From: Bacilli bacterium
GTDB taxonomy: Bacteria > Bacillota_I > Bacilli_A > ML615J-28 > CAG-313
Length of the DNA: 64,000 nucleotides
Reading direction: 5' to 3'
Assembly: GCA_017411715.1 (NCBI GenBank)
Contig: JAFQPO010000005.1
Span: forward strand, 662-64,661
The notes beneath the pieces are model-generated. The model saw only the letters and a program-made list of their open reading frames with translations. It was not told where the DNA came from and made no database searches. Made by a program: the position numbers and the translations under genes. This document shows, piece after piece, positions 63,725-64,000 of the stretch (positions are counted from its first letter, which is position 1; every line of letters starts with the position of its first letter).

Positions 63725-64000
63725 ATGGAGAAAATAGTTGAATTAGTACTTAAATACCAAAAAGATAGAAAAGAAGAAGAATTTATTAAAATATTGAATT
63801 GTTTTAAGTTAGCTATAAACAAATATTTGTGTAGTGTAAAACTAAAGGATAAAGAGGACATAGGACAAGTAGTTTTATTTAGTATATACGTTATAATAAT
63901 TAATTTTAAATATAAAGAAGCAGATTTTGATGAACATCTTTTTAATAAGAATACACTTGAATATTTAATCAAAAATGAATTTAAAAATGTTAATCAAACT
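63725..64000 (+). CDS. Sigma-70-family (region 2 / HTH_16-like) protein, 3'-truncated; absent from ORF track
   Basis: SD GAGGA, ATG 63725, 92 open codons: MEKIVELVLKYQKDRKEEEFIKILNCFKLAINKYLCSVKLKDKEDIGQVVLFSIY..., resembling ELV.KAQ.GD.EAF..I...F...I.KY......EDL.Q. Confidence 0.65.
   Translation, partial: MEKIVELVLKYQKDRKEEEFIKILNCFKLAINKYLCSVKLKDKEDIGQVVLFSIYVIIINFKYKEADFDEHLFNKNTLEYLIKNEFKNVNQT

Follow-up and report, generated by a model that had tools for sequence, protein, structure and literature searches.

The subject of this analysis is a 64,000-nucleotide (nt) stretch of DNA, hereafter the window, from a Bacilli bacterium of the CAG-313 lineage (assembly GCA_017411715.1, contig JAFQPO010000005.1, positions 662 to 64,661 of the forward strand), and in particular the open reading frame (ORF) that runs off its downstream end. 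This ORF is the beginning of a real and intact gene whose product is very probably a sigma factor, and its sequence places the protein in a new, divergent subfamily of TcdR/UviA-like sigma factors rather than in the TcdR group in the strict sense. The gene stands at the head of an operon that also encodes a small membrane protein, a holin, a nucleotidyltransferase-domain protein, and a giant Rhs protein predicted to lack a hydrophobic signal region. The best explanation for this arrangement, and one that we regard as probable, is that an autoregulated sigma factor of the TcdR/UviA kind drives holin-mediated release of the Rhs protein.

The ORF opens an AT-rich island at the edge of the window, as the original prediction had proposed. 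Its upstream neighbor is pfkA (62359-63324), and the GC content is 0.22-0.24 across 63250-64000, compared to 0.30 for the whole window. The features that define this edge are:

63333..63362, + strand: intrinsic terminator of pfkA, a 12-bp stem followed by a T-run, forming the left boundary of the AT-rich cassette.
63714..63721, + strand: ribosome-binding site of the sigma gene, AGAGGAAG, as read from the sequence.
63725..64000, + strand: predicted sigma-70-family gene, codons 1-92 of 245, truncated by the window end and covering regions 1.2/2.1/2.2 and the start of a family-specific helical insert.

From the ATG at 63725, 92 stop-free codons extend up to base 64000. Given that a stop is expected in 11.5% of codons at the local base composition, the probability of such an open frame is P = 1.3e-5, and it falls to 2.9e-13 for the 245 codons of the full gene. 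The peptide stretches that had been quoted as sigma-like (ELVLKYQ, EEFIKILNCF, INKY, and EDIGQ) are all present in the ORF. On its own, the fragment of 92 amino acids (aa) has no significant match in Pfam or NCBIfam and no word-sharing homolog among 5.8 billion proteins, and the sigma resemblance could therefore be tested only once the full protein had been recovered. An antisense ORF (63622-63972, - strand, 116 aa) that overlaps the leader and the sigma gene is without support, and we treat it as a probable shadow ORF in AT-rich coding DNA.

We recovered the complete gene from contigs of the same species, which were found in public assemblies by means of the PfkA protein and share 98.9-99.5% DNA identity over ~11 kb. 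Homology with all island-bearing contigs, as well as with one island-free contig (L001), extends through the pfkA terminator. Over the 276 nt in common with the window ORF, contig L004 differs at 2 nt and at no aa, and there the ORF reaches 245 aa; the C-terminus, LSELEVAKKLGISQQAVSKRRQKIRKKY, is a region-4.2-like helix-turn-helix in the part of the protein that lies outside the window. Three other contigs (L015, L016, and L017) carry a 98%-identical allele (P0001), while a 30%-identical allele occupies the same pfkA site in L002 and L003. The ORF is uninterrupted in at least 16 independent contigs, and with dN/dS values of 0.16 for close pairs of alleles and 0.39-0.59 for distant pairs, the gene is under purifying selection and is not a pseudogene.

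To place the protein, a profile of three members was compared with 1.84 billion proteins, which yielded a family of 225 cluster representatives at E ≤ 1e-3 (117 at E ≤ 1e-10); the counts given below refer to 68 full-length members. The sigma-70 superfamily model TIGR02937 matches 55 of these (best 3.7e-11) and SigB/F/G models match 31, while Pfam matches are sparser, with Sigma70_r4 in 22 members (best 3e-9), Sigma70_r4_2 in 12, and HTH_16 (PF12645; best 7.8e-7) and Sigma70_r2 in four each. In a profile search of the PDB, the top match was SigB of S. aureus (E = 3.2e-6), followed by SigF and SigW. The SigB match is colinear, with query residues 3-67 on region 2 and 188-244 on region 4, and the family profile aligns with SigB 15-81 and SigW 1-87 in sigma-2 and with SigB 196-252 and SigF 170-242 in sigma-4. 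An AlphaFold (AF2) model built on the 68-sequence alignment has a mean pLDDT of 92.1, and all 50 of the top 50 Foldseek matches to it are sigma factors (SigB: probability 1.00, E = 2.1e-3), with region 2 of sigmaE superposing at an rmsd of 2.4-3.4 Å over ~62 residues. The model has no sigma-3 and is organized as follows:

Residues 4-60: helices of regions 1.2 to 2.2.
Residues ~61-116: family-specific helical insert inside sigma-2.
Residues 117-157: 40-residue helix with a conserved LFCNENQF segment.
Residues 194-244: sigma-4 domain, preceded by a lower-confidence linker.

Conservation within the protein peaks in region 4.2, and an ED..QE motif contains the near-invariant D45 and Q48. This motif corresponds to the core-binding region 2.2, which reads DLIQEG in sigma-70. 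The sigma resemblance first proposed from the fragment thus survives in the full-length protein, which has a helix-turn-helix of the region-4 type and only sigma factors as relatives by fold. These results also bear on the possibility that the ORF is spurious, whether a frame left open by chance or a pseudogene, in AT-rich junk DNA where a contig ends. Such a reading could draw on the fragment's lack of matches of its own, the extreme AT-richness, the overlapping antisense ORF, and the lack of a toxin tip in the downstream Rhs protein, but it is opposed by the open-frame probabilities for both the fragment and the full gene, the intact frame in so many independent contigs, the dN/dS values below 1, the 225 clusters, and the confident model. 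We give it almost no chance, and consider it effectively refuted by family size, model confidence, and ORF statistics.

Among characterized sigma factors, the closest counterpart that we found is UviA, taken from the bacteriocin plasmid pIP404 of Clostridium perfringens. An hhalign comparison of the family with UviA gave a probability of 95.2% (E = 2.8e-8) over the N-terminal 64 columns, while the control, an ordinary ECF sigma factor from the same organism (L017 9560-10093), gave 1.2%. UviA itself consists of HTH_16 (PF12645) and Sigma70_r4, both of which weakly match our family, and this shared signature together with the alignment makes the TcdR/UviA-type sigmas the likely nearest characterized relatives, in keeping with the comparison that the original prediction had drawn. 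The hallmark of group 5 is a Ser-Arg-Gln (SRQ) motif in region 4.2, and its cognate promoters have a -35 element TTTACA and a -10 element similar to GTTATA (PMC4031146). Group 5 sigma genes immediately precede genes for toxins or bacteriocins, every examined case shows autoregulation, and tcdR in particular is preceded by two TcdR-dependent promoters (PMC4885068). The sigma gene of the window species, like that of at least 10 relatives, also lies upstream of toxin-like and holin genes and points the same way. Because SQQ stands in place of SRQ, TTTACA is missing, and the protein is ~60 residues longer, we assign it to a new subfamily, a distant relative of group 5 that would work in a similar way. 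The proposed kinship with TcdR-type factors therefore holds as a distant relationship to UviA and not as membership of the strict TcdR group. The idea of an undescribed regulatory system also needs qualifying: the system is not wholly undescribed, as a paralog (P0002, see below) is already named ‘sigma-70 family RNA polymerase sigma factor’ by NCBI. A family of ~225 clusters that is mostly missed by curated domain models is also relevant to genome annotation.

Prospective targets of the sigma factor had been expected downstream, outside the window, and a survey of the neighborhood found a holin and a giant toxin-like protein there. These genes were read from L015 and L017, which extend beyond the window end. 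The order of the cassette is sigma, p83, holin, nucleotidyltransferase protein, and a 2060-aa Rhs protein, and since these genes abut or overlap they form one operon. The p83 protein (83 aa) has an N-terminal membrane helix and a coiled coil and matches phrog_1863 at 1.8e-9; neither Pfam nor PHROGs reveals an anti-sigma domain in it. We also considered p83 as a holin of the BhlA/UviB type and rejected this, as it has no Pfam match and only a weak coiled-coil similarity to UviB (E = 0.003). The holin itself is well supported by matches to PF16079 (Phage_holin_5_2, 1.6e-14) and phrog_1129 (holin, 9.1e-15), and it adjoins the sigma gene in all syntenic loci. The next gene (L015 11275-12132) is a conserved member of the cassette; its 285-aa product has a minimal nucleotidyltransferase domain (PF01909/PF18765) at the C-terminus. 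It precedes the Rhs gene in the window species, while in relatives it comes after both the Rhs gene and the putative immunity genes (L023 19383-20225). The Rhs protein (L015 12142-18324) contains RHS repeats (RHS_repeat, 3.8e-22), an Rhs core, and a Laminin_G_3 domain. Across seven Rhs proteins of the family, the maximum Kyte-Doolittle hydropathy in the first 60 residues is 0.8-1.6, versus 2.7-3.3 in membrane and lipoprotein controls, and judged by this measure they have no hydrophobic signal region.

The same order of sigma, p83, holin, and giant Rhs gene is kept in 10 contigs of other species identified by tblastn (L023-L030, L032, and L036), in which the identity of the sigma protein is only 25-35%. 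These relatives are metagenome-assembled genomes labelled Bacilli, Erysipelotrichaceae, Coprobacillus, and Staphylococcaceae from the guts of humans, sheep, and deer. Their Rhs proteins have variable C-terminal ends, with a DPxGH-type site (DSTGY in L024) followed by variable tips in L024, L027, and L032, and Hint-like domains followed by tips in L023, L025, and L028. Small putative immunity genes follow these variable domains. Relatives also encode a protein of ~450 aa with Mur ligase middle and C-terminal domains directly upstream of the Rhs gene (L023 12144-13490, L027 12089-13465, and also L024-L028, L032, and L026), which is missing from the cassette of the window species. Beyond the cassette of the window species, L017 8862-10949 encodes a 167/193-aa protein of no known function, a conventional ECF-type sigma factor (177 aa, Sigma70_r2 5.4e-12), and a 381-aa neighbor that may be its anti-sigma factor.

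Between the pfkA terminator and the sigma gene lies the repeat array that had been reported alongside the ORF, and we found it to be real. It consists of direct repeats of ~75-96 nt with a 36-nt core that matches three times in the window and 0 times in shuffled sequences:

63374..63457, + strand: promoter-like repeat unit 1, core 63399-63434 (GTTGTATTTTT-GGCAC-TTTTTTGTAGTTTATATAGT), with no gene directly after it.
63470..63553, + strand: promoter-like repeat unit 2, core 63495-63530.
63545..63628, + strand: promoter-like repeat unit 3, core 63570-63605, ending in TATAGTGAGGGGG; the unit closest to the genes.

Copy number varies from 3 to 4 between strains, and the layout of unit 3 is almost identical to that of the holin-proximal unit of the relative L027. 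In five relatives (L023, L024, L025, L027, and L028) the units read GTTGT[T/A]TTTT, ~13 nt, and (C)ATGTTAC(T)ATAGTGAGGAGG, on the coding strand only, and they are found upstream of sigma, in the sigma/p83 spacer, and in the p83/holin spacer. A scan of 333 kb returned 14 matches to the composite motif, all at those three positions, and in the sigma/p83 spacer the GAGGAGG of the unit is the ribosome-binding site of p83. The units are thus interspersed in relatives and in tandem in the window species. When 18 units are aligned, the three repeats of the window among them, the GTTG, TTTT, TT, and G..G columns are invariant. Conservation within the motif is highest in the upstream block; this block and region 4.2 of the protein, each the most conserved element on its side, co-vary at the level of the family. 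Two conventional readings of the units were set aside. A consensus scan for sigma-A promoters was silent, with the best hexamers at least 20 nt apart by our own count, and a sigma-54 reading of TTGGCAC-N5-TTGT in repeat 1 fails, in our reading, as GGCAC is not conserved in the other copies and the spacing is one base off. Scans of metagenome contigs for the promoter motif gave 0 matches under strict settings and five under relaxed ones, and as none of the five has the upstream block we consider them chance matches; this collection seems not to hold the organism. In the Erysipelotrichaceae relative L027, three tandem 23-nt repeats (AAAATATTGCTCA core; 9654-9730) are located ~200 nt upstream of the sigma promoter unit and could be an operator array for another regulator.

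Our inference is that this sigma factor reads the units as promoters and that its gene, like those of group 5, is under positive autoregulation. In the mechanism that we envisage, a low level of the sigma factor would guide core RNA polymerase to the non-sigma-A unit (GTTGT[T/A]TTTT, ~13 nt, GTT[T/A]A..ATAGTG), and with three tandem units upstream of the gene, positive feedback would then turn on the whole operon, probably in an all-or-none manner. The signal-less Rhs protein would then leave the cell through the action of the holin and the small membrane protein, whether exported without lysis or set free when a producing subpopulation lyses. Such a scheme would parallel the C. difficile PaLoc as well as the uviAB-bcn genes of pIP404.

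An alternative is that the sigma-like fold acts as a conventional activator or repressor, or as a phage late regulator of the ArpU/RinA kind, in which case the units would be operators bound by the C-terminal helix-turn-helix without replacement of sigma-A, and the cluster would be a decayed prophage lysis module. The best single-sequence matches of the window allele are indeed generic helix-turn-helix models (HTH_3 and P22_Cro), the holin and p83 are phage-derived (phrog_1129 and phrog_1863), and operator arrays can take the form of tandem direct repeats. However, a conventional regulator does not account well for the colinear N- and C-terminal sigma matches, the near-invariant D45 and Q48 in the core-binding region, or a fold search that yields only sigma factors. 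The sigma protein has no meaningful relative by tblastn among plasmids and phages and no significant match to PHROG regulator families, and no other phage genes occur in the 10 syntenic loci. The units, moreover, are laid out in two blocks like promoters and run into the ribosome-binding site of the gene that follows. We therefore think that this alternative is unlikely.

A second, paralogous cassette is found in L007-L014 at another chromosomal site, after the V-type ATPase operon (L008 4797-11713, L009 8533-11063), with 3-4 promoter units, and its sigma protein (P0002) is 47% identical to that of the window and often occurs in the same samples as the pfkA-site allele. P0002 is a mosaic, with an N-terminus like the L002 allele and a last 55 residues near-identical to the window allele. 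In L009, the downstream p83, holin, nucleotidyltransferase, and start of the Rhs gene are identical to those of the pfkA-site cassette in L015, while L008 has a different nucleotidyltransferase and giant protein. The tendency of assemblies to break at the locus can be attributed to these mosaic cassettes with shared identical stretches. The repeat core, in contrast to the sigma proteins, is near-identical between the two loci and far more conserved than the coding sequence. The island-free strain, L001 (10960-11360), is 99.5% identical to the window up to 63447 and lacks the sigma-holin-Rhs cassette; after pfkA, it has one promoter-like unit and the same leader and ribosome-binding site, leading into a gene for a 76-aa two-helix membrane protein and then one for a 721/746-aa lipoprotein.

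It is conceivable from this that the protein is a true sigma factor but that the units are not its promoters, and are instead read by another sigma factor or regulator, or serve as sites of recombination and cassette exchange, with the real regulon located elsewhere. The unit and leader retained ahead of an unrelated gene in L001 point in this direction, as do the mosaic alleles and loci with breakpoints in or beside the array and the change in copy number from 3 to 4. Yet in five other species the motif is restricted to the sigma-p83-holin segment and tracks those genes, the paired conservation of region 4.2 and the upstream block favors recognition by this protein, and strains of the L001 type may still hold the paralogous sigma at the V-ATPase locus. 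We give this alternative a small chance of being correct, and continue to favor an autoregulated sigma factor that reads the units.

The leader between the array and the sigma gene contains the micro-ORF that had also been reported, and it too is real, with a strong ribosome-binding site (AAGGAGGTGA) ahead of its ATG. Two overlapping frames can be read here:

63640..63678, + strand: ribosome-binding site GGAGGTGA and micro-ORF MTNEFVFK* (8 codons), from ATG 63652 to TGA 63678.
63659..63709, + strand: overlapping alternative micro-ORF MNLSLNERIMVVKRFK*, from ATG 63659 to 63709.

The ribosome-binding site and the ATG are conserved but the peptide is not, since the L002 and L007 alleles have a bare ATG-TAA. 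L001 uses this same site to start its 76-aa membrane-protein gene, which places the window micro-ORF at a recombination joint. The leader (63606-63745) has no stable structure (z = +1.6), and a riboswitch or attenuator reading was dropped for want of a stable fold; matches in Rfam were all below threshold and fell on the pfkA terminator hairpin. In five relatives, a conserved 11-codon micro-ORF with the pattern M..Y..KLTPI* lies between the holin-proximal unit and the ribosome-binding site of the holin, in variants such as MIKYIKKLTPI*, MFNYSEKLTPI*, and MYKYLNKLTPI*, and MTNEFVFK* occupies the analogous position in the window. The regions that contain it are:

L023, 11158-11285: 11-codon micro-ORF.
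L024, 11155-11282: 11-codon micro-ORF.
L025, 11160-11292: 11-codon micro-ORF.
L027, 11150-11279: 11-codon micro-ORF.
L028, 10785-10917: 11-codon micro-ORF.

Within the last ~50 nt before the sigma start in relatives (L023 9940-10003 and L024-L027), the sigma ribosome-binding site GGAGGAG can pair with an upstream CTCCTC. The predicted leader begins with a GAGGAG at its very 5' end, to which this CTCCTC could pair in turn, making a possible three-part translational switch that is absent from the window leader.

Several observations weigh against the view that a sigma factor of the TcdR/UviA kind drives release of the Rhs protein. With regard to the identity of the regulator, the window allele falls below every curated Pfam and NCBIfam threshold (best Sigma70_r4_2 0.0076, TIGR02937 0.0083), and its sigma-4 domain (P0001/L004) reaches only E = 0.0076-0.022. 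Foldseek gave no match at E ≤ 1e-3, and global TM-scores of 0.2-0.3, which we attribute to domain orientation, are expected for multi-domain sigma factors but are not decisive. The similarity to UviA is confined to the N-terminal 64 columns, and hhalign reported no detectable similarity for region 4. In place of SRQ, region 4.2 of the family reads SQQ, with Q224 invariant and Q223 nearly invariant in the 68 members, and in the putative cognate promoters TTTACA is absent from the candidate -35 block and GTT(T/A)A.. is only loosely like GTTATA. With regard to release, no peptidoglycan hydrolase domain was detected in the scanned cassette proteins (L015, L023, L025, and L027), although several ORFs have no Pfam match and may conceal a novel hydrolase. 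The p83 protein could act not as a partner of the holin but as an anti-sigma factor anchored in the membrane, like TcdC. The Rhs protein of the window species ends in ...NLYAYCFNDPVMCS* directly after its core and before the usual DPxG cleavage motif, with only non-coding AT-rich DNA beyond (L017 8480-8940), and as it has no C-terminal toxin domain, the cargo of this species may be defective. Lastly, the sole hint of expression is a 220-nt contig from a bovine gut metatranscriptome (63640-63856, depth 3.4), present in one of four runs, which spans the micro-ORF plus 130 nt at the start of the sigma gene and begins ~25 nt downstream of unit 3; pfkA is covered in all four runs.

We also put forward a broader picture, tentatively and at somewhat less than even odds of being right in full. 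Uncultured low-GC gut Bacilli (Erysipelotrichaceae/Coprobacillus-like, in ruminants and humans) may carry a self-contained and previously undescribed module for toxin delivery, in which a group-5-like sigma factor has its own promoter ahead of sigma, p83, and holin, and positive feedback drives part of the population to release signal-less Rhs polymorphic toxins by means of the holin. The array of 3-4 copies would tune the threshold of the switch, and the unit of promoter and ribosome-binding site would act as the recombination joint through which cassettes are swapped between the two chromosomal sites. Systems of this kind are known, but the literature that we searched contains no description of the present variant, of its host range, or of its cargo. 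If confirmed, the TcdR-type regulatory principle would extend beyond Clostridia, Firmicutes would have a secretion route for Rhs toxins, and an orthogonal sigma/promoter pair would become available. With its compact motif and small sigma factor, the system is directly testable in Bacillus subtilis.

The family shares with ECF (group 4) sigma factors a sigma-2 plus sigma-4 architecture, a match to TIGR02937, and a gene for a small membrane protein directly downstream, in the position of an anti-sigma factor. ECF promoters have blocks of the AAC/CGT type, and the candidate promoter blocks found here are unlike these; no anti-sigma domain was detected in p83, and the hhalign probability against an ECF sigma factor of the same organism is only 1.2%. 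The resemblance to UviA, TcdR, BotR, and TetR is closer, as these are two-domain sigma factors with an N-terminal PF12645-type domain and a C-terminal Sigma70_r4. As with UviA and TcdR, the gene lies in an AT-rich, strain-variable island and is directly followed, on its own strand, by genes for a holin-like protein and for a large toxin or bacteriocin that has no signal, and as with TcdR there is more than one copy of a non-sigma-A promoter, here a candidate, ahead of the sigma gene itself (PMC4885068). Region 4.2 is conserved and region 2 variable, as in group 5 (PMC4031146). The differences are in size (245 aa here versus ~185 aa, with an extra helical segment of ~55 residues at ~61-116 in sigma-2), in region 4.2 (G(I/V)SQQAV here versus SRQ), in the promoter blocks (candidates GTTGT[T/A]TTTT and GTT[T/A]A..ATAGTG here versus TTTACA and GTTATA), in the hosts (uncultured gut Bacilli/Erysipelotrichaceae-like here versus Clostridia), and in the cargo, which is an Rhs/YD protein here and a glucosylating toxin, a neurotoxin, or BCN5 in group 5.

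The cargo has its own counterparts in the Rhs/YD polymorphic toxins such as WapA of B. subtilis, with which it shares RHS repeats, the core end motif, and, in relatives, variable C-terminal domains and putative immunity genes. Proteins of the WapA type have a Sec signal and are anchored to the wall, whereas those described here appear to have no signal region and invariably occur together with the sigma-p83-holin module; the version found in the window species also lacks a C-terminal toxin domain.

For the locus as a whole, the closest parallels are the C. difficile PaLoc, in which large signal-less clostridial toxins depend on the TcdE holin (PMC3369941), and the type 10 lysis cassette of Yersinia entomophaga, which releases a Tc toxin (PMC10847048). 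All of these loci encode a dedicated regulator alongside holin genes of phage origin and a very large cargo protein that lacks a Sec signal, and the cargo of Y. entomophaga includes an Rhs-type shell. Release by a subpopulation is the expected behavior of a positive-feedback switch. The cassette described here differs in that its holin belongs to the PF16079 Hol44-like family, unlike TcdE, that no endolysin, endopeptidase, or spanin was detected in it, and that it has a conserved extra nucleotidyltransferase and, in relatives, a Mur-ligase-like protein. The export of very large signal-less toxins by Gram-positive bacteria is still debated, and nearly all work on it concerns a handful of pathogenic clostridia. 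The locus has the same three-part logic of a private sigma factor, a phage holin, and a giant signal-less cargo in a different bacterial class, with an Rhs protein as the cargo and a gene order conserved across many uncultured gut species, and if our picture is correct it would represent a Gram-positive counterpart of type 10 secretion for Rhs proteins.

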